A DNA stretch of 64,000 bases from Anaerolineae bacterium. Its GTDB lineage: Bacteria > Chloroflexota > Anaerolineae > JAADDB01. The stretch covers positions 13,214 to 77,213 of the forward strand of contig WFQU01000020.1 of assembly GCA_015486845.1 (NCBI GenBank), read 5' to 3'. The position numbers and the translations under genes are program-made. This document shows positions 9,326-62,977 of this stretch, piece after piece; the stretch's first letter is position 1, and the number at the start of each line of letters is the position of its first letter. Below the pieces are notes generated by a model. That model searched no databases. It was not told the origin of the DNA and saw only the letters and a list, made by a program, of their open reading frames with translations.

Positions 9326-9421
9326 CGCTAATTACGCAGATTTCACGCCGACAAATCAGAAAGGATTAGCGAAAATCAGCATTTTTTCGCATCCTATTGC
9401 GGGACAAGCTGAGTAGTCACC
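9326..9421 (-). repeat. R3 element copy A (conserved ~95-nt upstream module), oriented toward rmd-gmd-manB
   Basis: On the minus strand it reads GGTGACTACTCAGCTTGTCCCGCAATAGGATGCG...GCTGATTTTCGCTAATCCTTTCTGATTTGTCGGCGTG. It is block-wise identical to copies at 12144-12241, 28971-29070, 62896-62977 and 45241-45338. Confidence 0.7.
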
Positions 9422-10839: not shown

Positions 10840-12219
<1,380 letters not shown>

Positions 12220-12241
<22 letters not shown>

Positions 12242-13279: not shown

Positions 13280-13437
13280 ACAAAAAAAGCTCCCCCGAGA
13301 GGAGCATGTCTTTTAGAATGCGCCTCCCTTATCTTTCAAGCAGTGTTGCCTGCCGGAATTGGCACCATGAACGCTTTGTTGCTGCGCTCCGGTTGCCGGA
13401 GGATCAACGGGCCGGTCCCTCCCCTCCTCTTGATAAG
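13280..13437 (-). promoter_or_regulatory. SAM-I (S-box) riboswitch with intrinsic terminator
   Basis: The minus strand reads CUCUUAUCAAGAGGAGGGGAGGGACCGGCCCGUUGAUCCUCCGGCAACC...GGUGCCAAUUCC...UGAAAGAUAAGGGAGG. This matches the S-box conserved blocks (P1 CUCUUAUC/GAUAAG, GGAGGGA, GGCCCG, GAUGA, GGCAACC, GGUGC-AAUUCC). It is followed by the hairpin GCUCC-ccgaga-GGAGC and UUUUUUU about 70 nt before the kinase start. Confidence 0.85.
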
Positions 13438-13671
13438 AGTGCTTCTCTTATTTATGTAATTTCACAAACACAATCAATATACAGAGTTTTCCTCGACTTG
13501 TCAAAAAAACATAAGGCTGGGCTACGTCGGTGCCATCGCAATAATTCCTTCATAATGCACTATTACACAGCAGCCTGAATGGATCTGCGGTTGTTAAGGG
13601 CTCGGCGCATCACGGATGCGGCTATCTCTGTTTAGAAGTCCAACCTCTGCGAGAAGTTAAACTTCATCAAG

Positions 13672-15141: not shown

Positions 15142-15215
15142 AGCCACCCATCGGACTCGAACCGATAACCTACGCATTACGAATGCGTTGCTCTTCCGAA
15201 TTGAGCTAGGGTGGC
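15142..15215 (-). tRNA. tRNA-Thr (anticodon CGU)
   Basis: The minus strand gives GCCACCCTAGCTCAATTCGGAAGAGCAACGCATTCGTAATGCGTAGGTTATCGGTTCGAGTCCGATGGGTGGCT as a cloverleaf. It has a 7-bp acceptor stem, a T-loop GGTTCGAGTCC and anticodon loop TTCGTAA. CCA is not encoded. An upstream TTGTCA-17-TATAAT promoter is present. Confidence 0.85.
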
Positions 15216-15458: not shown

Positions 15459-15530
15459 GCGGGTGTAGCGCAGTGGTAGCGCATCTGCTTCCCAAGCAGA
15501 GTGTCGTGGGTTCGAATCCCATCACCCGCT
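15459..15530 (+). tRNA. tRNA-Gly (anticodon CCC)
   Basis: GCGGGTGTAGCGCAGTGGTAGCGCATCTGCTTCCCAAGCAGAGTGTCGTGGGTTCGAATCCCATCACCCGCT folds as a cloverleaf. A canonical TTGACA-18-TATAAT promoter lies at about 15417-15446. Confidence 0.85.
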
Positions 15531-23987: not shown

Positions 23988-24680
23988 TTACTTCCCTTTT
24001 TGCAATGCCGCGTCAATGGCATCCGCGAAAGTCTTATATGGCTGCGCACCCAAAATGAGTTTCTGGTCGATAAAAATAGTAGGCGTCGAGTGAACCCCAC
24101 GCTGCTTCGCAGCATCTTGAGCTTGTTGGATGGCCGCTTGATACTTCTGACTGTCCAAACAAGCATCGAATTGCTTAGTGTTCAGTCCCAACGCTTTAGC
24201 AAAAGCTTTCAAATGTTCGATATTGAACGCACCTTGATTCTCGCCGGCCTGACTATTGAATAATTTATCGTGATAAGGCCAGAATTTCCCCTGATCATTA
24301 GCACAATAAGCAGCTTCTGCAGCCCAAGCGGATTCCTGGCCCAAAAAAGCGAAGACATGGACGGTAAGACGCGCCTTGCCGGGTTTGACGTAATTTTCGA
24401 TAATCTTAGGGAGCGTGTCTCGTTCGAAACGACCACAATACGGACACTGAAAGTCTGTATAGACATCTATTTTCACCGGGGCCTTCGCGTTCCCCATGCT
24501 CATACCTGCCGGGGAAACAGCTTTGCCCACATTGTGTGGCTTTCCGCCCCACCAAATCAATGCTAAAACGCCGACGACTGTTACGACAATAACGATCCAA
24601 AAGACATAACTCTGTTTTTTCTTGCTTGCTTGCGGCTTTCGTTGGTAACGAGGCCGTTTTTTTGTTTTGTTTTTAGCCAT
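23988..24680 (-). CDS. DsbA-family thiol:disulfide oxidoreductase, membrane-anchored
   Basis: A Lys-rich N-terminus is followed by a TM segment, then the CPYC motif (FQCPYCGRFE) in a thioredoxin fold. ATG at 24680 has a GGAGGAGGG Shine-Dalgarno. Confidence 0.8.
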   Translation of the reverse strand: MAKNKTKKRPRYQRKPQASKKKQSYVFWIVIVVTVVGVLALIWWGGKPHNVGKAVSPAGMSMGNAKAPVKIDVYTDFQCPYCGRFERDTLPKIIENYVKPGKARLTVHVFAFLGQESAWAAEAAYCANDQGKFWPYHDKLFNSQAGENQGAFNIEHLKAFAKALGLNTKQFDACLDSQKYQAAIQQAQDAAKQRGVHSTPTIFIDQKLILGAQPYKTFADAIDAALQKGK

Positions 24681-24689
24681 TATCCCTCC

Positions 24690-25140
24690 TCCGAAAATAA
24701 GCTTCTCTGGAGGGTAGCCGAGGGCAAAGCCCTCGGCTACCCTCTCCTCCGAAAAATAGAACGCTAACCAACGGCGTTCTCCGCCCGACCGCACGGGGAT
24801 CAAATCCCCGTGCTACATCGCCAAGAAGCCCCCTGAAAGGGGGATAGTGTTGAACAGCCGCTTGGCAGCGAATGCTACCTTGACGCACCCCGCCGGCGTA
24901 CCGGAATCGAGGCTTTAGCCGGTGGTAGCCCCACCAACCCATCTAAAGGCTTGACGCCAGCTGCATTATCTTCATCCGCTGTGGTGCGCCGCAGGCCCAT
25001 GCCGACTCCTCCGAAAATAGAACGCTGAAAATAAGACCTCTCCCCTGGCTTACCGCCCAAAGGGGCAGCAAGCCTGCCCCTCCCCGTATCGGGGAGGGGC
25101 AAAAGCTAAGCGCAGCGCAGCTTGGGGGAGAGGTCTCCCC
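24690..25140 (+). repeat. R2 mosaic repeat, copy 1 (multi-hairpin modules)
   Basis: About 450 nt that match the reverse complement of 54755-55395 module by module. Shared modules include GGCGTTCTCCGCCCGACCGCACGGGGATCAAATCCCCGTG, GGCTTTAGCCGG...CCCATCTAAAGGC and GACCTCTCCCC...CCCTCCCCGTATCGGGGAGGG...GGGGAGAGGTC. Confidence 0.75.
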
Positions 25141-25644
25141 ATAGCACGGCTTCCCAAATCTGCGAACCCCAACCTCGTCCAAAGACCTCTATCATTATAC
25201 CATAAGGGCTAAACCCGCAACATATCCACAGTCGAATAACTTGCCACCAGTCCAAAACAATGCTATACTGTTTTTGTTTATAGGTGGGCATTAACGCCCA
25301 CGATACATTGCCTTAATGGCAAAGTCCTCACCGTGTTTAGCATTTTTATCTTCAGCGAAAGGAGGTGCAGCAGAAAGACGGCTTGGCTAATGACAGCAAG
25401 AGCGAGGTTTGCGCGTGCCCCAGGCTGGCAATCAATTTTTCTTGATGACTGTTTTCCTCGCATAATAGCAATAATTCATTCACATAGACACGTACGGCTG
25501 TGCATGCGGTTTCGGCGGTAATGCCCACTAACGGAAAGCGAAGATCGTCGTTATTGGCTCTGCTCCAGAGCACAAAACAACGGTTTTCCCGTTAATGACC
25601 GAAAAGTTCTGGTGAACAGCTCGTACAACAAGGAGCAAAACAAA

Positions 25645-26745
25645 ATGGCGGGTGTTGTTTACAAACATGTTTATAAAAAGTTCGGTAATGTGACGGCTGT
25701 CAACGATTTGAACATCGAAATCGCTGACAAAGAATTCCTCGTGTTTGTCGGCCCTTCCGGCTGCGGTAAAACGACTTCATTGCGTTTGTTAGCCGGCCTG
25801 GAAGAAATTACCTCCGGCGATATTTTCATCGGCGATAGGTTAGTCAACGATGTGCCACCAAAAGATCGGGACATCGCCATGGTTTTCCAGTCTTACGCAC
25901 TTTATCCTCACATGACGGTCTTCGACAACATGGCGTTTGGCTTGAAATTGCGCAAGACGCCCAAAGACGAGATTGTTCGTCGTGTTAAGAATGCTGCAGA
26001 GGTTCTAGGGATCGAGATGCTATTAGATCGCAAGCCGAAACAGCTTTCCGGCGGCCAACGCCAGCGCGTGGCAGTGGGCCGGGCTATCGTTCGCCAACCC
26101 AAAGTGTTTCTTTTTGATGAGCCCCTCTCTAACTTGGATGCTAAATTGCGCGTCCAGACACGCTCGGAGCTAAGCAAATTACACAAACGGCTGGCTACAA
26201 CTTTCATCTACGTGACCCATGATCAGGTAGAAGCTATGACCATGGCCACCCGTATTGCCGTCATCCGGGATGGCATCTTACAACAAGTCGCACCGCCGCA
26301 GGAGCTATACGACCATCCGACTAACGTTTTTGTCGCCGGCTTCATTGGCAGCCCTAGCATGAACTTCTTCGACGCCACATTGGTCGAACAAGATGGCAAA
26401 CTTTTCGTGAGTAGTGATACATTCCGACTGCAGCTGCCTGAAGATCAGGCCAAGATATTCAAAAAATACAAAGGACAGGAAGTCATTTTCGGCATTCGCC
26501 CTGAAGATATTCACGCCCGACCGTATTTGCCGTCGGGCGTAGTAAGCGCAGAAATGAAAGGGGAAGTAGACGTCACCGAGTTAATGGGCAACGAAATCTT
26601 TCTCTATATGCTGACAGGCAAGAAACCCTTCATTGCTCGGGTTGACCCACGTGTCAGGGTAACGGCGGGAGATGTCGTAGACCTATCGGTTAACATGAAA
26701 AACGTCCATTTGTTCGATACGAAAACCGAAAAGGCTCTGAAGTAA
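25645..26745 (+). CDS. ABC transporter ATP-binding protein, MalK/UgpC-type sugar importer ATPase
   Basis: Walker A GPSGCGKTT, signature LSGGQRQR, Walker B LFDEPLSNLD and a C-terminal TOBE-like domain. Confidence 0.85.
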   Translation: MAGVVYKHVYKKFGNVTAVNDLNIEIADKEFLVFVGPSGCGKTTSLRLLAGLEEITSGDIFIGDRLVNDVPPKDRDIAMVFQSYALYPHMTVFDNMAFGLKLRKTPKDEIVRRVKNAAEVLGIEMLLDRKPKQLSGGQRQRVAVGRAIVRQPKVFLFDEPLSNLDAKLRVQTRSELSKLHKRLATTFIYVTHDQVEAMTMATRIAVIRDGILQQVAPPQELYDHPTNVFVAGFIGSPSMNFFDATLVEQDGKLFVSSDTFRLQLPEDQAKIFKKYKGQEVIFGIRPEDIHARPYLPSGVVSAEMKGEVDVTELMGNEIFLYMLTGKKPFIARVDPRVRVTAGDVVDLSVNMKNVHLFDTKTEKALK

Positions 26746-26759
26746 TACCACAGAGGCGG

Positions 26760-27060
26760 TCCAGGTAGGGGAGGGGCCAGCCGGTCTCTCCCCTACTGCG
26801 CGCTTAGTGGTCGTCTATGAGTTACCTTCCAATTTAGACGTTGAACTTCTAAATCGGAAAAATTGTATCTTCTCAATAACTTGGAGGGCCCCCCAGCCCC
26901 CAACTGGGTGAGTAAAGGGACATGACGTTCTATTCACCCCGGAATATTGAGAAGATACGAAAAAATTTAAGTTAACATTTTATCACGCGTTTAGCGAAGG
27001 GAAATCAAAGCGCCCATGAGGGAGATTGCTTTCGTCGCTTCGCTCCTCGCAATAACAACT
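26760..27060. repeat. R2-related partial repeat modules
   Basis: GTAGGGGAGGGGCC...CTCCCCTAC hairpin; TCGTCGCTTCGCTCCTCGCAATAAC and GACGTTGAACTTCTAAATCGG resemble the insertion segment of R2 copy 2 (55040-55240). Confidence 0.45.
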
Positions 27061-28970: not shown

Positions 28971-29070
28971 AGAACACGGATTCACGAAAACAAGTCGGAA
29001 AGGATTAGCGAAAATCAGCGTTTATCTGCGCCATCTGCGTCCTATTGTTGGGAAGACCAAGTAGTCACGA
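28971..29070 (-). repeat. R3 element copy C (between murJ and recF, antisense to both)
   Basis: Contains GACTACTTGGTCTTCCCAACAATAGGACGCA...GCTGATTTTCGCTAATCCTTTCCGACTTGT. It is the only copy not co-oriented with a downstream gene. Confidence 0.65.
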
Positions 29071-29215
29071 ACAACGTCTAATCAGGCATGATCTGGCAAG
29101 TGCATTCGCGATCGTGCCTATGAAACCGTCCTGCGTAAGACATCGACCTCGTATCCCTTGTTTTGCCTGCACGGGTAAATAGACCTAAAATGAGGAGGAT
29201 TTTATCAGCGGAGAT

Positions 29216-29300
29216 AGTAACTACTCAGCCCTGCGGCGATTGGCAGGCAACCTGCACAGGCAGGTTCAGCAACTATTGGCAGCGATTTCTAATCGCCGGA
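29216..29300 (-). repeat. R1 repeat, partial copy b
   Basis: The reverse complement reads GGCGATTAGAAATCGCTGCCAATAGTTGCTGAACCTGCCTGTGCAGGTTGCCTGCCAATCGCCGCAGGGCTGAGTAGTTACT. Confidence 0.7.
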
Positions 29301-29338
29301 TGCGGTAAGCTGAGCAGTTACCGGAGAAAAAGAGAATC

Positions 29339-45211: not shown

Positions 45212-45240
45212 TTACCTTCTCCTCCGAAAACAAAAATGGG

Positions 45241-45338
45241 ACGCAGATCAACGCAGTCTGCGCACACAGATAAAAAACAATGGTCAAAAAATTAGTAACA
45301 GATTCTCCCCTGAAAATAGCTCCTATTGCGCCGGAGTA
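45241..45338 (-). repeat. R3 element copy E, immediately upstream of argD/lysJ
   Basis: The minus strand reads CTACTCCGGCGCAATAGGAGC...TTGTTTTTTATCTGTGTGCGCAGACTGCGTTGATCTGCGTCCC, followed by the RBS TTTTCGGAGGAG and ATG. Confidence 0.65.
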
Positions 45339-45387
45339 GAGGCTTTAGCCGGCGATAGACCCACCAGCCCATCTAAAGGCTGCCTCG

Positions 45388-45560
45388 CCCGGCGATTAGA
45401 AATCGCTGCTACAACTTCGAAACCTGCCTGCGCAGGTTGCATGCTAATCACCGTAGGGCGATTTGGCAGATGTTGCCGTGACTTTTAGTCGCTGGGCCAT
45501 CAGCCGTCATCAACTGGCTCCATTCCTATCCATGTAGCATGACTTCTCGAGCCTGCGACC
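45388..45560 (+). repeat. R1 repeat, full-length copy c
   Basis: CCGGCGATTAGAAATCGCTGCTACAACTTCGAAACCTGCCTGCGCAGGTTGCATGCTAATCACCGTAGGGCGATTTGGCAGATGTTGCCGTGACTTTTAGTCGCTGGGCCATCAGCCGTCATCAAC...GCATGACTTCTCGAGCC. It is about 90% identical to 62531-62700. Confidence 0.8.
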
Positions 45561-46895: not shown

Positions 46896-46977
46896 ACACG
46901 TGGTCTGGCGACGTTGCGATAAATTTTAATGTCTGCGTATGAGATAGGTGTTCACCATCGCCTATCTCGTACGTAGA

Positions 46978-47022
46978 TTGGAAATTGCTGCCGCAGTGGT
47001 AAAACCTGCCTGCGTAGGCTGT
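46978..47022 (+). repeat. R1 repeat, short partial copy f
   Basis: GATTGGAAATTGCTGCCGCAGTGGTAAAACCTGCCTGCGTAGGCTG against the R1 consensus GATTAGAAATCGCTGC..ACAAC..GAAACCTGCCTGCGCAGGTTGC. Confidence 0.45.
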
Positions 47023-47065
47023 GGCTCAGTCGCTGCAGGATGATTTTACAGATGCTGCCGTTTTG

Positions 47066-53342: not shown

Positions 53343-53370
53343 GCTGAATTCTCCTTCGAAAATCAATAGG

Positions 53371-53410
53371 ACACAGATCAACACAGGCTGCGCACGCAGA
53401 TAAAAAAACA
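53371..53410 (-). repeat. R3 3'-block (copy F) upstream of gatB
   Basis: The minus strand reads TTGTTTTTTTATCTGCGTGCGCAGCCTGTGTTGATCTGTGTCC. It aligns almost base-for-base with the segment upstream of argD/lysJ (TTGTTTTTTATCTGTGTGCGCAGACTGCGTTGATCTGCGTCC). Confidence 0.6.
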
Positions 53411-53521: not shown

Positions 53522-54688
53522 TCAACCATGCCGCCGGGCAAAGCGGGCGATGCGATTCAACGCCTCGGTGATCTGGTCCGTTGCCGTGGCGTAAGTGCAA
53601 CGCACGTAGCCTTCACCGCTGGTGCCGAAAACAGTGCCGGGGATGACTGCTACTTGTTCTTCAAGGAGCAATTTCTCGGCAAACGCCATGGCATCCATGC
53701 CGGTTATGGCCACAGACGGGAAGGCGTAGAAAGCGCCGCGTGGCTCGACGCAGGCCAGCCCAATGTCGTTGAGCCCGTTGACTAATATCCGGCGGCGCAC
53801 ATCGTACTCGGCGATCATGGCCTGTACTGCTTCTTCAGCCGCTGGATCGGTCAACGCGCTCAGGGCGGCATATTGGGACACAGTGGACGCACACATGATG
53901 GTGTACTGGTGCACTTTGAGCAAAGCCGATGCCAAAGCGTTGGGTGCCGCCGCGTAGCCGAGGCGCCAGCCAGTCATAGCGTAGTCTTTGCTGAATCCGC
54001 CTAAAAGGACGATGCGTTCCCGCGCCCCGGGCAGGCTGGCGAAACTGATATGTTGCCAGTCGTAAACCAAGCGGTCGTAAATCTCGTCAGAAATGATGAG
54101 CAGGTCGTGTTTCTGGGCAATCCGAACGATGGCGGTCATTATTTCCTGCTGCAACACAGTGCCGGTGGGATTATTCGGGTAGCCCATTAGGAGCGCTTTA
54201 GTGCGCGGCGTGATGGCCGCTTCGATTTCTGCTGGTACGGGCTGGAAGTTATTCTCGGCCCGGGTGGGCACGGTTACCGCTTTGCCGGCGGCCAACAAGA
54301 CCGGCGGCACATACCCGATGTAGGATGGTTCCGGCACGATGACTTCGTCGCCGGGGTCCAGAATGGCATCGAAAACGAGCCGCAAGGACTCGGAAACGCC
54401 GACGGTGATGATGACTTCGCTCTCTGGGTCGTAGCTGACGCCATATCGCTCTTGCAGGTTAGCAGCGATGGCCTGCCGCAAAGGAAGAATGCCCGAGTTA
54501 ACACTGTAATGGGTTTCGCCGTCTTGTAAGGCCTGGATGCCGGCTTGGAGAATTGGCTCCGGGGTCTTGAAATCCGGTTCGCCGATGCCTAAAGAAATGA
54601 TGTCATCCATAGTTGCCGCGATGTCGAAAAACTGTTTGATTGCATAGGGCGGTATGCTTGCTACTTTTTTCGAAATGTACTTACCCAT
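53522..54688 (-). CDS. Pyridoxal-phosphate-dependent aminotransferase, class I/II (aspartate-aminotransferase-like)
   Basis: The fold-type I pattern GIGEPDF...NNPTG...SFSKDYAMTGWRLGY, with the PLP lysine in SFSK. Confidence 0.8.
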   Translation of the reverse strand: MGKYISKKVASIPPYAIKQFFDIAATMDDIISLGIGEPDFKTPEPILQAGIQALQDGETHYSVNSGILPLRQAIAANLQERYGVSYDPESEVIITVGVSESLRLVFDAILDPGDEVIVPEPSYIGYVPPVLLAAGKAVTVPTRAENNFQPVPAEIEAAITPRTKALLMGYPNNPTGTVLQQEIMTAIVRIAQKHDLLIISDEIYDRLVYDWQHISFASLPGARERIVLLGGFSKDYAMTGWRLGYAAAPNALASALLKVHQYTIMCASTVSQYAALSALTDPAAEEAVQAMIAEYDVRRRILVNGLNDIGLACVEPRGAFYAFPSVAITGMDAMAFAEKLLLEEQVAVIPGTVFGTSGEGYVRCTYATATDQITEALNRIARFARRHG

Positions 54689-54754: not shown

Positions 54755-55395
54755 TAGCTGCCCATGACGCGATGGGCATGCATCATGGGCCTGTAGCCTG
54801 CCTGTGCGGGCACGCAGACAGGCGCACCACAGCGGCCGAAAATGATGCGGCTGGTGTCAAGCCTTTAGTTAGGCGGGTTGGTGGGCCTACCACCGGCTAA
54901 AGCCTCAATGCCGGTGCAGCGGCGGGGCGCGTCAAGGTAACGTCCTCTGCCAAGAGGCTGCTTAACACCAGCCCCTTTCTAAGGGGCTTATCATTTACGT
55001 AGCACGGGGATTTGCCCCCCGTGCGCTCGGGCGGAGAACGCCGTCGATTAGAAGTTCAACTTTTTGAAGGGGGCCTGATTTTTTAGATGCTCCGCGCCTT
55101 AGCGCCACTGCGTCAACTTATTTTGAGAGGAGTTTGTCATTGCGAGGCCCGACAGGGCCGTGGCAATCTTCCTTACTGGCGTTGGAGATTGCTTGACCAA
55201 AAAGAGGGTCACACTGTCGCTTCGCTCGCAATGACATGACTGATTTGAAGGCGTTGCGTCAGCTATATTTAGGGGAGACCCCTCCTCTAAGCTGCGCTAC
55301 GCTTAGCTTTTTCCCCTCCCCGATACGGGGAGGGGAAGGCTTGCCGCCCCTTTAGGCGGCAAGCCAGGGGAGAGGTCTTATTTTCAGAGAAGGCA
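54755..55395 (-). repeat. R2 mosaic repeat, copy 2 (inverted relative to copy 1; carries extra ~250-nt internal segment)
   Basis: The reverse complement aligns with 24760-25140. The module order differs, and one hairpin shows compensatory substitutions (CCCCCTgaaaAGGGGG against GCCCCTTagaaAAGGGGC). Confidence 0.75.
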
Positions 55396-55460
55396 CCGCC
55401 GGGCGACCACAAGGATTTGCTCTTGCTTTTTGAATAGATGCGATTTATGTCGTTGAACTA

Positions 55461-57224
55461 TCACGGCCCCTGTGGAGGGCCTAACGTAGCAATTTGCGTT
55501 GGCTGCGGTGTGACGGTCGGCTGCGGTGAGTGGGTGTTGGTTGGCTGCGGCGTGTTGCTCGGCCAGGGTGTGCTGGTTGGCTGTGGCGTGGCGGTCGGCT
55601 CCGGCCAGGGTGTGCTGGTTGGCTGCGGTGTGGCGGTCGGCTCCGGCCAGGGTGTGCTGGTTGGCTGCGGTGTGGCGGTCGGCTCCGGCCAGGGTGTGCT
55701 GGTTGGCTGCGGTGTGACGGTCGGTTCCGACCAAGGCGTGTTGGTTGGCCACGGCGTGTCAGTCGGTTCCGGCCAAGGCGTGTTGGTTGGCCACGGTGTG
55801 TCAGTCGGTTCCGGCCAAGGCGTGCTGGTTGGCCACGGCGTGTCAGTTGGTTCCGGCCGGCGCGTGCTGGTTGGCCACGGTGTGGCGGTCGGCTCCGGCC
55901 GGCGCGTGCTGGTTGGCCACGGTGTGGCGGTCGGCTCCGGCCGGCGCGTGCTGGTTGGCCACGGTGTGGCGGTCGGCTCCGGCCAGAGTGTGCTGGTTGG
56001 CTGCGGTGTGGCGGTCGGTTCCGGCCAAGGCGTGCTGGTTGGCCACAGTGTGGCGGTCGGCTCCGGCCAGGGCATGCTGGTTGGCCACGGTGTGTCAGTT
56101 GGTTCCGGCCGGCGCGTGCTGGTTGGCCACGGCGTGTCAGTCGGTTCCGGCCGGCGCGTGTTGGTTGGCTGCGATGTGGCGGTCGGTCCCGGCCAGGGCG
56201 TGTTGGTTGGCCACGGCGTGGCGGTTGGTTGCGGGCTTACTAATTCCCTTCGGGATGTAGGCTGACGAGTGGGTACAACAACAGGCAGCGCTGTATCAGT
56301 TGGATAGATAGTATGCAACAGTGTCGGCGTTGCTATGAATGTAGGCGTTGGTGTTGGCCTTGGCATGCGTGTAGGCGTTAGCGTTGACCTTGGCGTGCAT
56401 GTAGGCGTTGGCGTTGACCTTGGCGTGCATGTAGGCGTTGGCGTTGGCGTGCCGGTAGATAATTCAGCCAATAACATTGTCGTGCGAGCTAATGTAACTT
56501 GAACCGGTTTCTGATCTGGCGGCGGCACTTCTCGAGAGAGACGCGTTAGTTGGCGTTGTGCTGTTTGCAATGTTTTACCGAATTGTTCTGTGGCGGCCAT
56601 TCGTTGTGGTACCGGTACAGCAGCCAATGCAGCTTGGGCTGATTGTACTGCTTGCCAATAATCGTCCAGCAATCGTGGATCGGGATGGGCATGTTGGTTA
56701 GCATAAGCGTATTCATCAAGGCGCCGTTGCGCTAACTGCGCGTAAACGACAGAGTGATCTTGGGGGGGGCGTGTTATCAGCGTGATGCGCTCAAGGGGAC
56801 GTTTTAGCTCGTATAGCGGTTGGCCGGGCATGCTGTGCATGGCAGCAGCATGTATACTAAGCCCGATGGCTAACAACAACACAGTGGTTATTAATGTTGG
56901 GGCTAAACGTGTCAAGACGCCTTTGGGCTGCCAAAAAAGTGCTCGCCATCGGGCTAAAGGCGATTGTTGCTCTTTTTGTAAGGCAGCATGCATGCGCGCT
57001 CGGGCTTTGTGCGTAGCTTGCGCTGAAGGTCGAGGTTGTTGAACAAGCAATAAGCGTCGAGCCGTTTCAACATAAGGCGCAACAGCTTTTTGTTCCTCAG
57101 CGGATAACGCTGTGTCTTGCTTAGGATCATAACCTCGCACATCTTGTTGTAGATGTGCGAGGGCCTTTTCTAAGATGTTTTCGTCCACTTCTGCGCTATT
57201 TAACCTCTCTATGCCACACGACAC
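55461..57224 (-). CDS. Putative anti-sigma factor with single TM helix and ~330-aa extracytoplasmic Pro/Thr-rich tandem-repeat domain
   Basis: It lies immediately downstream of, and overlaps, the ECF sigma gene. The N-terminal cytoplasmic domain is followed by a TM segment ([18 protein letters not shown]), then about 17 near-identical 14-aa units of [28 protein letters not shown]. Confidence 0.6.
55510..56230. repeat. Tandem 42-bp repeat array (~17 units) within anti-sigma CDS
   Basis: The unit is GGCTGCGGTGTGGCGGTCGGCTCCGGCCAGGGTGTGCTGGTT, with point variants. It generates spurious ORFs in several frames on both strands. A second short array of 33-bp units lies at about 56330-56460. Confidence 0.9.
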
Positions 57225-57873: not shown

Positions 57874-58632
57874 AGTTCTATGATATACTTTGGCCCCGTT
57901 CCCTGCAATTCCTGTAATTTCAAATTTACCCCGGCGCAGAAACAGATTCGAGAATCAGGCAGTTGGAAACCGCATCTATATTTGCTGAGCGTTACGCTTA
58001 GAAGGCGGCTAATAGTCTGCACCGGTGGACTGGACAGGCCTATCGCTCCGATTTTCTGTTGCTCGGCGTGAAAAAGTCTATTACCGGGCTGATACATTTA
58101 GCATTACTGTTGCTATTCATGTCCCCTATCTATTTGTGACTACTCAGCGATTCTAAGTCATAGAACCCAGATGACGCATATACCTAATAAATGCTGATTT
58201 TCTCTGATCTTGTCTGATTTATGGACAGCTGTGTAAGATCTGTGTTCTATTTGACCACGGCTGAGTAAATTTCTTTGTTTACTGCCCGAACAGGTCATCA
58301 GTATAGCGTACTAACTACACCAACGTGCGAATATGTTGAAAGGTTACGGTGAATTAATTCTCGGTAACTCCTGCGCAAAATCCTTGTTGGTTCGATATTC
58401 AGGTCGGTGCAGATCGGCCGGCGTCGCGACAGGACGAATAACTCAATTGCGTGCGAATTGGAACTAATTCTCAAGATATTGCATAACCTTTTCTGGCTCA
58501 CTTGCGTTGATTTGATTGGAAAGGTTATGACATGACTATTTTCGAAAGCGGTTTTGTCTCATGAGCGAAAAAGAAAATGCATTGTCAAACTGTTTTCCTG
58601 GTAAACAAATTCTTTCTGCGGAGGTATAAGAC

Positions 58633-60138
58633 ATGATGAAGAAACTATGGCGGTATGTCGTGATAGTAGCTGTATTGGCTATGGTGGGAAGCGCATTACC
58701 TATGATGAGCTTTGCAGCTATCAATGGTAATACAGCACCGGCTGTCTTACAGGGCGTCATCGAGAGCATGCCCGACGCGGGTAACATCGGCGTATGGCAG
58801 GTCAGCAATGTCCCGGTGCTGGTTGACGCATCGACGATTATCAGTGACCGAGCTGGAGCGCCCGACGTGGGCAGTTCGGTCAAGGTGCAAGGATTCCCGG
58901 ACGGGAATGGTGGTATTACGGCTAAGCGTATCAAAGTCGAAACCATGATGCCCGATGCTCAGTTAACGGGTGTTCTGGATGCTTTTGATGCCAATGGTGT
59001 ACTTGTTGCTGGCGTTGACATTGCTCGAGACGCTAATACGTTGGTTGTGGGCGCATTGCATGCCGACCAGTATGTTAAAGCACTTTTCGAAGTAGACCAA
59101 GCCGGGCAACGGATGGCAGTTCAGATAATCTCTGCGGAGGCTGAATACACGCCTGCAGTGGTTCACTTTGCAGGGCTTATTCAAACGGTGCCAGCTGGAC
59201 GTGCAGGAGATTGGATCATTGCCGGTCAGCATGTGCAAGTAACTGCGTCTACTTGGATGAATGAGTACAAAGGATTGGCACAGGTCGGCGCTATGGCGGC
59301 TGTGCAAGGCATACGACAGGCTAATGGTGTGTTGCTCGCCAGCAAGATTACCGTGCTGAAAGCGTTGAATGAGAATATGCCGAATCCTATTCATGCCTAC
59401 ACTGAATTTCAGGGTATTGTTGATGAACTGCCTGCGGGCACGTTTCTTGGAGCATGGCAAGTTAGTGGGCGTACAGTGAAAGTGACAGCATCTACCTACG
59501 TCGCAGGCGCGATAGAGGTTGGTGACCAGGTACTCGTGAAAGGGTATGTTTTGGCTGATGGTTCCGTTACGGCTGACCGCATTATAGCACTTGGTAGGGA
59601 AAACGGTACGCCAAGCGACCCAGGTAACGGTCACATGCCTACCGTGACGCCGACGCCGTATAACCCGGGCAGCGGCTGGATGCCGACAGCGACTCCGACG
59701 GCTTCTAACCCGGGCAGCGGTCACATGCCTACCGTAACACCGACGCCGTACAACCCGGGCAGCGGCTGGATGCCAACAGCGACTCCGACGGCTTCTAACC
59801 CGGGCAGCGGTCACATGCCTACCGTAACACCGACGCCGTACAACCCGGGCAGCGGCTGGATGCCCACGGCGACTCCGACGGCTTCTAACCCGGGCAGTGG
59901 TCACATGCCTACCGTGACGCCGACACCGTACAACCCGAGCAGTGGTCAGATGCCGACAGCGACTCCGACGGCTTCTAACCCGGGCAGCGGTCAGATGCCG
60001 ACGGCGACTCCGACGGCTTCTAACCCGGGCAGCGGTCAGATGCCGACAGCGACTCCGACGGCTTCTAACCCGGGCAGCGGTCAGATGCCCACGGCGACTC
60101 CCACACCTCATCATTATGGACCTTTCGGAAACGGTTGA
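58633..60138 (+). CDS. Secreted repeat protein: signal peptide, 3-4 internal ~90-aa beta-rich repeats (DUF5666-like) and C-terminal 15-aa PT/NPGSG tandem repeats
   Basis: Signal peptide MMKKLWRYVVIVAVLAMVGSALPMMSFA. Internal repeats have the form GxWQVSxxxVxVxAST...VGxxVxVxGxxxxDGSxTAxRI. The C-terminus carries about 10 units of PTATPTASNPGSGQM/PTVTPTPYNPGSGWM. Confidence 0.6.
   Translation: MMKKLWRYVVIVAVLAMVGSALPMMSFAAINGNTAPAVLQGVIESMPDAGNIGVWQVSNVPVLVDASTIISDRAGAPDVGSSVKVQGFPDGNGGITAKRIKVETMMPDAQLTGVLDAFDANGVLVAGVDIARDANTLVVGALHADQYVKALFEVDQAGQRMAVQIISAEAEYTPAVVHFAGLIQTVPAGRAGDWIIAGQHVQVTASTWMNEYKGLAQVGAMAAVQGIRQANGVLLASKITVLKALNENMPNPIHAYTEFQGIVDELPAGTFLGAWQVSGRTVKVTASTYVAGAIEVGDQVLVKGYVLADGSVTADRIIALGRENGTPSDPGNGHMPTVTPTPYNPGSGWMPTATPTASNPGSGHMPTVTPTPYNPGSGWMPTATPTASNPGSGHMPTVTPTPYNPGSGWMPTATPTASNPGSGHMPTVTPTPYNPSSGQMPTATPTASNPGSGQMPTATPTASNPGSGQMPTATPTASNPGSGQMPTATPTPHHYGPFGNG
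59630..60105. repeat. Tandem 45-bp repeat array within secreted-protein CDS
   Basis: The unit is CCGACGGCGACTCCGACGGCTTCTAACCCGGGCAGCGGTCAGATG, alternating with a variant. It produces the spurious antisense ORF 58963-60207. Confidence 0.9.
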
Positions 60139-60242
60139 AGGGTATTGATTAGTTAATGTAATGTTTCGCAGAATGTTTGGAAGGCTTCTCCTGAGCTTTC
60201 CAAACATTCAAAATATGCTAATGAGAAAAGAGCGTACCGATT

Positions 60243-62530: not shown

Positions 62531-62700
62531 CCGACGATTAGAAATCGCTGCCACAACTGCAAGACCTGCCTGCGCAGGTTGCCTGTTAATCGCCGTAGGG
62601 CGATTTTGTAGATGTTGCCGTGACTTTTAGTCACTGGGCCCATCAGCCGTCATCAACCAACCCCATGCCTATCCCCGTAGCATGACTTCTCAAGCTTACC
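62531..62700 (+). repeat. R1 repeat, full-length copy d
   Basis: CCGACGATTAGAAATCGCTGCCACAACTGCAAGACCTGCCTGCGCAGGTTGCCTGTTAATCGCCGTAGGGCGATTTTGTAGATGTTGCCGTGACTTTTAGTCACTGGGCCCATCAGCCGTCATCAACC...GCATGACTTCTCAAGC. Confidence 0.8.
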
Positions 62701-62860
62701 CTGAAAATAGCCCCCAGGCCCCAAATTCTAGGAGGGGTGTTGATCCCCCCAAGGTTGGGGGATAGGGGGCGCGTTTTTAGCCGCTGTGATGTGCCTGTCT
62801 GCGTGCTCGCACAGGCAGGCCGCCGGCCCATGCCGACTCCTCTCTATACAATGAAATATG
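62700..62860. repeat. R2-related fragment
   Basis: CCGCTGTGATGTGCCTGTCTGCGTGCTCGCACAGGCAGGCCGCCGGCCCATGCCGACTCCTC matches module ends found in both R2 copies. The hairpins CCCCCCAAGGTTGGGGG and GGGGTGTTGATCCCCC are present. Confidence 0.5.
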
Positions 62861-62895: not shown

Positions 62896-62977
62896 CTGAT
62901 GACACAGATAAATCAGAAAAGATCAGCGAAAATCCACGTTACCTGTGTCTTATAGTTAGAAGGGGTGAGTAGCCACC
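62896..62977 (-). repeat. R3 element copy D
   Basis: The minus strand reads GGTGGCTACTCACCCCTTCTAACTATAAGACACAGG...GGATTTTCGCTGATCTTTTCTGATTTATCTGTGTCATCAG. Confidence 0.6.

Follow-up and report, generated by a model that had tools for sequence, protein, structure and literature searches.

The repeat array in the leader of the dsbA-like gene, here called R2, is probably a cluster of small repeat modules (hp1, X, A, E, F and B) that are non-coding, interspersed and MITE/REP-like in character, and whose families expanded in one Anaerolineae-like lineage. The modules were found to be multicopy and modular, to be bounded by a motif resembling a Shine-Dalgarno (SD) sequence, and to be absent from the orthologous site and the other sampled sites of a relative. 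In the copy adjacent to the dsbA-like gene (copy 1), they sit between a conserved promoter and the start codon of this gene. R2 is arranged like BIME or BOX elements and is therefore of an ordinary kind, unusual in its SD-like module boundaries; the repeat families are new, and the kind of element is already known. The positions of the features within the window, that is, the whole analysed stretch of 64,000 nt, are collected in Table 1.

Table 1. Repeat modules, their neighbours and other features of the window (locus names beginning with L denote sequences outside it)
Feature	Position	Strand	Remarks
SAM riboswitch and two tRNA genes	13326-13439, 15142-15215, 15459-15530	-, -, +	
Left neighbour of copy 1 (dsbA-like gene)	23988-24680	-	DsbA/thioredoxin-fold protein, ATG at 24680
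Junction motif TATTTTCGGAGGAG	24686-24699	-	real SD of the dsbA-like gene (ATG at 24680)
Module hp1	24700-24743	-	16-bp perfect palindrome (24710-24744) and tail CCAGAGAAGCT
Junction motif, second copy	24744-24757	-	decoy SD
Module A, copy 1	24764-24975	-	hairpin chain; REP-like A2 unit at 24901-24951
Module X, copy 1	24976-25005	-	TCGGCATGGGCC..CACAGCGG; without the 26-nt hairpin of the other two X copies
Junction motif, third copy	25006-25019	-	preceded by a partial duplicate at 25020-25033
Module B, copy 1	25025-25145	-	12-13-bp closing stem (25034-25045 / 25125-25136) and three hairpins, a four-way junction
Extended -10 promoter TATGGTATAAT of the dsbA-like gene	25194-25204	-	conserved in the relative; leader about 505 nt
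Right neighbour of copy 1 (malK)	25645-26745	+	MalK-type ABC ATPase
MITE-like insert	26865-26958		14-bp perfect TIRs (GTATCTTCTCAATA); 8-9-nt flanking direct repeat GAAAAATT / GAAAAAATT
C-family MITE	29215-29321		107 nt, 13-bp TIRs, TSD CGGAGA (29209-29214 / 29322-29327)
Isolated A2 sub-module	45327-45381	-	followed by junction motif at 45305-45318
Aminotransferase gene beside copy 2	53522-54688	-	start at 54688
Module X, copy 2	54785-54835	+	extra hairpin CCTGCCTGTGCG..CGCAGACAGG
Module A, copy 2	54836-55075	+	inverted relative to copy 1
Module E	55076-55132	+	ends in TATTTTGAGAGGAG; comes after A in L004, L024 and L027 too
Module F	55135-55236		12-bp inverted repeat TGTCATTGCGAG/CTCGCAATGACA around three hairpins
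Module B, copy 2	55267-55392	+	ends in TATTTTCAGAGAAG
Anti-sigma-like gene beside copy 2	55461-57224	-	DUF5667 and PT-rich repeats; stop codon at 55461
Module X, copy 3	62774-62842	-	different joined partners
Leader unit of ~60 nt	60-123, 45218-45290, 53349-53410; L024 15435-15495	+, -, -; 	precedes uspA, class-III aminotransferase, gatB-like gene and hypC

A first-pass annotation, made from the letters of the window, had described R2 as a mosaic of recurring hairpin modules with a second, inverted copy near 54755-55395, and both points were borne out. In a self-comparison of the window, 24746-24990 was found to be the reverse complement of 54821-55070 (250 nt, 80% identity) and 25025-25140 that of 55272-55387 (116 nt, 92% identity), so that modules A and B both recur inverted in copy 2. 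Pairwise alignment also confirmed that the module order differs: the order of the two parts is reversed between the copies, with about 200 nt separating them in copy 2. Reading toward dsbA, copy 1 consists of B, X-A and hp1, and copy 2 of X-A, E, F and B. The earlier suggestion that such a difference in order points to mobilisation or recombination was thereby supported. The interval between dsbA and malK, however, is not filled with modules over 930 bp as had been stated, since they are restricted to 24686-25145, about 455 nt of a 964-nt spacer, the remainder of which (25146-25644) is unique sequence conserved in the relative.

The hairpins confirmed in R2 include the perfect pair GCACGGGGAT/ATCCCCGTGC, CCCCC..GGGGG, TGCCCCTCCCCG/CGGGGAGGGGCA and the 16-bp palindrome of hp1. 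The perfect CTTGCCGCC..GGCGGCAAG hairpin is the version of copy 2; its counterpart in copy 1 has two A.C mismatches on the plus strand, which are G.U pairs on the minus strand. The long-range inverted repeat thought to enclose the whole array, AGACCTCTCCCC/GGGGAGAGGTCT, is a 12-bp repeat that encloses module B alone. Among the proposed fragments, the one at 62700-62860 proved to be the third X copy, and the interval 26760-27060 yielded only an 18-nt piece (26840-26857) and an F-like piece of ~30 nt (about 27018-27057) that resemble modules, most of it not being copies. The hairpin at 26765-26796 was considered as a fragment of B and rejected, as it is the orthologous terminator hairpin of malK and is present in the relative too.

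Alignment of all copies gave a composite unit of the form (TATTTTCGGAGGAG) - X - A - E - (CTTATTTTSRGAGRAG). Individual modules measure 45-240 nt, contain only short ORFs, and are stacked head-to-tail in a single orientation. The copies differ by gain or loss of whole hairpins: a 26-nt hairpin is present in two of the three X copies of the window, an insertion/deletion that breaks the reading frame between copies, and A is missing the CACGGGG hairpin segment in L024. The partners of a module vary by locus as well, X being joined elsewhere in its third copy and A2 standing alone at the isolated site. In the folds of modules B and F, a closing stem bounds three hairpins, and F-like ends were also found in L027, as at the small piece near 27018-27057.

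Copy 2 has the stop codon of an anti-sigma-like gene on one side and the start of an aminotransferase gene on the other. Because it is inverted relative to copy 1, it runs against both neighbours; the claim that copy 2 stands upstream of a gene and points toward it was thus contradicted, the copy being antisense to both genes. A plus-strand ORF at 55438-56265 that could have served as a target is spurious, since it is the reverse complement of the PT-rich repeat of the anti-sigma-like gene and had no Pfam match. This coding tandem repeat (55434-56321) has a 42-nt period, corresponding to a PT-rich repeat of 14 aa at the C-terminus of the protein; a second coding tandem repeat, with a 45-nt period, lies at 59528-60152.

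Each module ends in the SD-like motif TATTTTCRGAGGAG, which also serves dsbA and several other genes as their real SD. On the minus strand, TTTTCGGAGGAG occurs exactly at 24686, 24744 and 25006, with the 16-bp palindrome between the first two occurrences, so that the repeated ribosome-binding site noted earlier at the dsbA start is present and is in fact threefold. With up to two mismatches allowed, 14 matches were found in the window versus 4.6 expected, and none of 100 shuffles reached 14. In the 20.7 kb of the relative, the motif was absent. It is the working SD of dsbA, uspA (position 110), the class-III aminotransferase (45219) and the gatB-like gene (53351) in the window, and of hypC (L024) and an rsmI-like gene (L028) outside it; in L028, the motif directly follows the 3' end of B.

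The flanks of hp1 match each other within each locus. In the window, GGAGGAG stands on both sides, and at L024, where a homologue at 854-900 shows a compensatory G-C to A-T change in the stem, AGGGGAG stands on both sides. These locus-specific flanks fit target duplication, and recombination with conversion at a shared joint could also produce them. A leader unit of ~60 nt (Table 1) was observed besides, with the sequence TTTTTTATCTGCGTGCGCAG.CTGCGTTGATCTGCGTCCCATTTTT.TTTTC.GAGGAGA and with ATCTGCGT repeated 21 nt apart. Its homology halts immediately after GGAGA, and it is either a shared operator and SD cassette or another repeat family.

A TGnTATAAT-type extended -10 element (TGGTATAAT, 25194-25202, minus strand) is conserved on the dsbA strand, with the copy 1 modules downstream of it, and malK has a promoter of its own, TTGCCA-17-TATACT at 25241-25269. 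Therefore, the array is an addition to the leader of dsbA and not to that of malK. The first-pass annotation had placed copy 1 upstream of the MalK-like ATPase and aimed at it, which does not hold: the modules lie downstream of the dsbA promoter, the better-folding strand and the SD-like ends face dsbA, and the malK promoter and its 370-nt leader are free of modules.

The orthologous spacer was available from a relative (L017 and L018), in which the DsbA protein is 80% identical, the same divergent gene pair is present, and the spacer measures 567 nt. Its alignment with the window was good from the malK start through both promoters to TGTGGTATAATG. Beyond this point, ~85 nt leads to the dsbA start in the relative versus ~505 nt in the window, and the dsbA start region reads GTAGGAGGAACC-ATG in place of the junction motif TATTTTCGGAGGAG. 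No copy of any module family was found in L017, L018 and L019 (~34 kb in all). The dsbA leader of L017/L018 has itself diverged, which masks the exact insertion points of R2 and counts against reading the array as inserted modules. As a side effect, R2 would be co-transcribed, giving dsbA a highly structured leader of ~505 nt with two decoy SDs.

On the other side of the spacer, the leader of the MalK-like ATPase gene (25270-25644, plus strand, ~370 nt), which follows the TTGCCA-17-TATACT promoter, is 85-95% conserved with L017/L018, the DsbA protein being only 80% identical. It had no Rfam match, and its segment 25507-25531 shows 84% complementarity to 1346-1370. The leader is possibly an RNA element not described before, or else a region dense in operators. 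Elsewhere in the window, the SAM (S-box) riboswitch of Table 1 lies upstream of an operon for a pfkB-type kinase, AdoHcy hydrolase and SAM synthetase, and two tRNA genes were found as well.

The spread of the modules beyond the window was also studied. Proteins identical to those of the window were found in MAG GCA_027008065.1 and in a Logan assembly, a contig of which begins inside module B, at position 25111; the named homologues and one genome match were from Anaerolineae/Chloroflexota. A further MAG of this lineage is GCA_027008045.1. A scan of a genome collection with a 20-nt core of A gave one true homologue, in 'Anaerolineae bacterium S014_12' (L004, 87% identical), and this contig ends inside A. 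Gene callers annotate a 41-aa ORF over X-A, and a search with its peptide returned four more 'proteins', which led to new loci. Two of the further X-A(-E) loci (L022 and L027) belong to the same MAG, L027 with the tandem X-A-E, X-A, and the others (L024, L023 and L026, L025, L028) to the sister MAG and ENA assemblies. Copies were found at seven or more loci overall, including at least five other loci in the same and sister MAGs. Six of the seven contigs end inside a module, as is expected of multicopy repeats. All copies are intergenic, the genes flanking them are functionally unrelated, and five of the seven A copies are co-directional with a neighbouring gene. Among near-identical strains, no presence/absence polymorphism was seen, which also weighs against the repeat-module reading.

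A scan of JGI metagenomes with a 23-nt core of A gave no matches, and a TIR-gap-TIR pattern for B gave a single match there (L021), which was rejected as chance and lies inside high-GC coding sequence. No match to the end of B was found in a scan of viral contigs, and a protein search with a spurious 79-aa ORF over B returned no candidates. The public 'proteins' of 41-68 aa (P0121-P0125; window 24875-25000, minus strand, and loci L022-L028) are translated module X-A. They are annotation artefacts that served as handles to locate repeat copies. A conserved small protein in X-A was rejected, since L027 has no start codon and the 26-nt insertion/deletion shifts the frame of copy 2.

A similarity to an unrelated genome was also observed. 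The sub-module A2 (window 24901-24951) has a 20-nt core, GAGGCTTTAGCCGGTGGTAG, that matches one arm of the perfect REP-like palindrome GAGGCTTTAGCCGGTGG..CCACCGGCTAAAGCCTC letter for letter. This palindrome is present at least 14 times in the gammaproteobacterial Thiotrichaceae MAG S06.Bin195 (loci L003 and L005-L016), and A2 itself retains a degenerate second arm. The same MAG carries TAACTGA-type heptamer repeats like those of marine Beggiatoaceae (PMC4679880). The match of the A2 core could be due to chance or to a shared or transferred REP family.

Spacers adjacent to R2 carry further short elements. In one of them, the C-family MITE is inserted in the SD region of an SMC_N/AAA_23 gene, 12 nt upstream of its GTG start, and L017/L018 have the exact empty site, with a single CGGAGA at the insertion point. 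The MITE-like insert downstream of malK is a single copy in the window. Taken together, the TIRs, the flanking duplications and the empty site demonstrate active MITE transposition in this genome, with one MITE family or more having landed in SD-like sequence. Other copies of the C core were observed at 3-86, 45387-45470, 46976-47052 and 62532-62612. A further repeat family, 'D', with the core AAATCAGAAAGGATTAGCGAAAATCAGC, is intergenic at 9342-9420, 12158-12240, 28981-29068, 62899-62976 and 58186-58220, and occurs in L022 at 2233-2289.

On this background, the R2 modules would have arrived by non-autonomous transposition of a MITE- or REP-like type. The insertion into, or recombination at, SD-like sequence presumably duplicated this sequence each time, which would explain both the triplicated 'RBS' and the changing module order. 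The array would accordingly be passenger DNA and not a dedicated regulator. In agreement with a MITE-like nature, the modules are small (under ~500 bp) and non-coding, their copies are dispersed, and a relative is without them. The short imperfect palindromes in extragenic mosaics correspond to REP/BIME elements, but the one or few REP types in alternating orientation that mark REP/BIME clusters of high copy number were not found, since the hairpins within a cluster all differ and share one orientation.

Several features do not conform to a simple transposon. Perfect 12-bp inverted repeats occur in B and F but not in X, A or E, and hp1 is a bare palindrome. The two B copies stay homologous for about 9 nt outside the 12-bp inverted repeat at either end, which indicates that B is not cleanly TIR-terminated, and no convincing target-site duplication was found around B or F. 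The SD-like motif of ~14 nt stands on either side of each module; a duplication of ~14 nt would be unusually long for a target site. No transposase, REP-associated tyrosine transposase (RAYT, a Y1 transposase) or reverse transcriptase was found in the ~64-kb window and ~60 kb of fetched loci, and no autonomous partner was seen there.

A more specific proposal, which we put forward tentatively, is that the mobile modules use the ribosome-binding site (TATTTTC|GGAGGAG) as an insertion or recombination joint. As each event would duplicate or donate an SD, the elements would rewrite 5' leaders genome-wide. A working SD may in this way already have been supplied to at least six genes (dsbA, uspA, and the class-III aminotransferase, gatB-like, hypC and rsmI-like genes), and the leftover decoy SDs could serve as ribosome-binding stabilisers of mRNA. 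This apparent use and donation of ribosome-binding sites is the feature of R2 worth pursuing.

The same joint can be viewed in another way. The modules may have spread by homologous recombination, with an SD-bearing leader unit of ~14-40 nt, present before many genes, as portable homology and with unequal crossing-over, or Campbell-type integration of excised circles at this unit, stacking and shuffling 'module + SD' cassettes. Such a course of events would account for the presence of the junction motif at the end of every module, for the head-to-tail arrays in one orientation, for the tandem in L027, which is joined at the junction motif, and for the flank homology of B past its inverted repeat. 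The ~60-nt leader unit, ending exactly at GGAGA before uspA, the aminotransferase gene, the gatB-like gene and hypC, is also counted in its favour. However, 14 nt is very short for RecA-dependent exchange, the clean TSDs and TIRs in adjacent spacers show that transposition operates in this genome, and target duplication explains the flank variants of hp1, which are specific to each locus, no less well. Spread by recombination is considered rather unlikely.

It was also considered whether the modules are functional structured RNAs, either cis-acting leader or stabiliser elements or small RNAs, with B as a relative of whalefall-1 and with selection on the SD-bearing strand. The folding of the modules lends this idea some weight. 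The fold of B is a four-way junction, for which z = -9.3 in the sense direction versus -7.5 in antisense, and differences between the stems of the two B copies are limited to three wobble changes and one compensatory change. In X-A, the SD-bearing strand folds better than its complement in nine of nine copies (consensus energy -44.5 versus -30.4), the three G.U pairs of the A2 stem are invariant in all copies, and the co-directionality of five of seven A copies with a neighbouring gene points the same way. This strand asymmetry, seen in the nine X-A copies, the A2 G.U pairs and the B stem changes, could hint at selection on one strand and is counted against the interpretation as passenger DNA, although the excess of G.U may just reflect G-rich composition.

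Comparison with Rfam gave no family at the gathering threshold over the whole window, and on both copies at E values up to 10 only sub-threshold whalefall-1 (RF01762) and noise were obtained. The whalefall-1 match spans the whole model in both B copies with 26.3 and 26.0 bits, that is, about 26 bits as compared to a gathering score of 37. The likeness lies in a pair of neighbouring GC-rich hairpins with a CAGG-G.GAGG.C tail after them, and B differs in its extra hairpin and its closing stem. Whalefall-1, an orphan RNA to which no function has been assigned, is known from a single whale-fall metagenome and was graded as a certain RNA by Weinberg et al. (PMC2864571).

Covariation, which had been proposed as a check of R2, did not reveal conserved structure. 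In the nine X-A copies, it amounted to 0.065 versus 0.068 for shuffled alignments, 445 of 500 shuffles being at least as high, and the covariation term of RNAalifold was unfavourable (+2.85). The copies vary little, only one pair changing on both sides among them, and the test is weak because of this. In addition, the orthologous dsbA leader does without the modules, copy 2 runs antisense to the genes on either side, and the flanking genes are unrelated in function. Neither the conserved orthologous leaders nor the covarying helices characteristic of a cis-regulatory leader or riboswitch were found. Thus, a regulatory or structured-RNA role of R2 is not supported, we regard it as somewhat less likely still than spread by recombination, and the structure is treated as a property of the elements and not as evidence of a host function.

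A strict REP/BIME system, with a RAYT gene at another place in the genome and its product moving the palindromic units as single-stranded DNA, is very unlikely. The sub-modules are indeed imperfect palindromes of 20-40 nt within extragenic mosaics, strand-specific G.T/G.U stems would fit recognition of single-stranded DNA, and the A2 core equals an arm of the palindrome repeated in the Thiotrichaceae MAG. On the other hand, no RAYT was found in the window or the other loci, the units of a cluster all differ and share one orientation instead of forming inverted doublets of a single REP, and the composite units are long, X-A-E reaching about 330 nt. A decayed IS element, group II intron or prophage end is hardly conceivable. 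Its inverted repeats and hairpins provide a general likeness only. With E values of up to 10 allowed, no intron, ribozyme or Rfam family other than the above match and noise was obtained. Pfam gave no transposase, reverse-transcriptase or integrase domain, BLAST against 72,556 plasmids and 50,697 phages found nothing similar, and many loci carry intact copies of these short modules. R2 thus matched no known IS, intron or Rfam family.

Read as a cluster of mobile repeat modules, R2 has practical consequences. Repeats of this type explain assembly breaks of MAGs at intergenic regions in this hydrothermal-vent Anaerolineae lineage, and they yield spurious 'genes' of 40-70 aa that are now in public protein databases. 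R2 also shows that several repeat families have recently invaded 5' leaders in one lineage of Chloroflexota; in this phylum, to our knowledge, such elements have been little described. If the SD-like joint is the actual target, the elements would home to ribosome-binding sites and duplicate them, and genome parasites would be linked directly to translation initiation and leader evolution.

Several known systems are comparable with R2. The Correia/NEMIS elements of Neisseria and the ERIC/IRU elements of Enterobacteria are inverted-repeat elements of 100-150 nt that lie near genes, form long hairpins in mRNA, and alter mRNA stability or SD accessibility depending on their orientation. The neighbouring families of the window resemble them in their TIRs, TSD and empty site. 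The R2 modules are different in that neither their TIRs nor their TSD are clean, and whereas Correia elements duplicate TA, the joint of R2 is ~14 nt long and SD-like. The BOX elements of Streptococcus pneumoniae are modular boxA-boxB-boxC repeats with a variable number and order of sub-units; they are non-coding, have a strong predicted secondary structure, and lie in intergenic regions near gene starts. R2 has no sequence relation to them, belongs to another host phylum, and has modules split by a repeated SD-like joint. BIMEs, the REP clusters of Enterobacteria, are extragenic mosaics of short imperfect palindromes and other conserved motifs; they are species-specific, absent from the orthologous spacers of relatives, and co-transcribed with neighbouring genes. 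The R2 units, in contrast, all differ, share one orientation, form composites of up to ~330 nt with SD-like ends, and have no known RAYT, but R2 resembles BIMEs in being a lineage-specific extragenic mosaic of palindromes that the orthologous spacer of the relative lacks.
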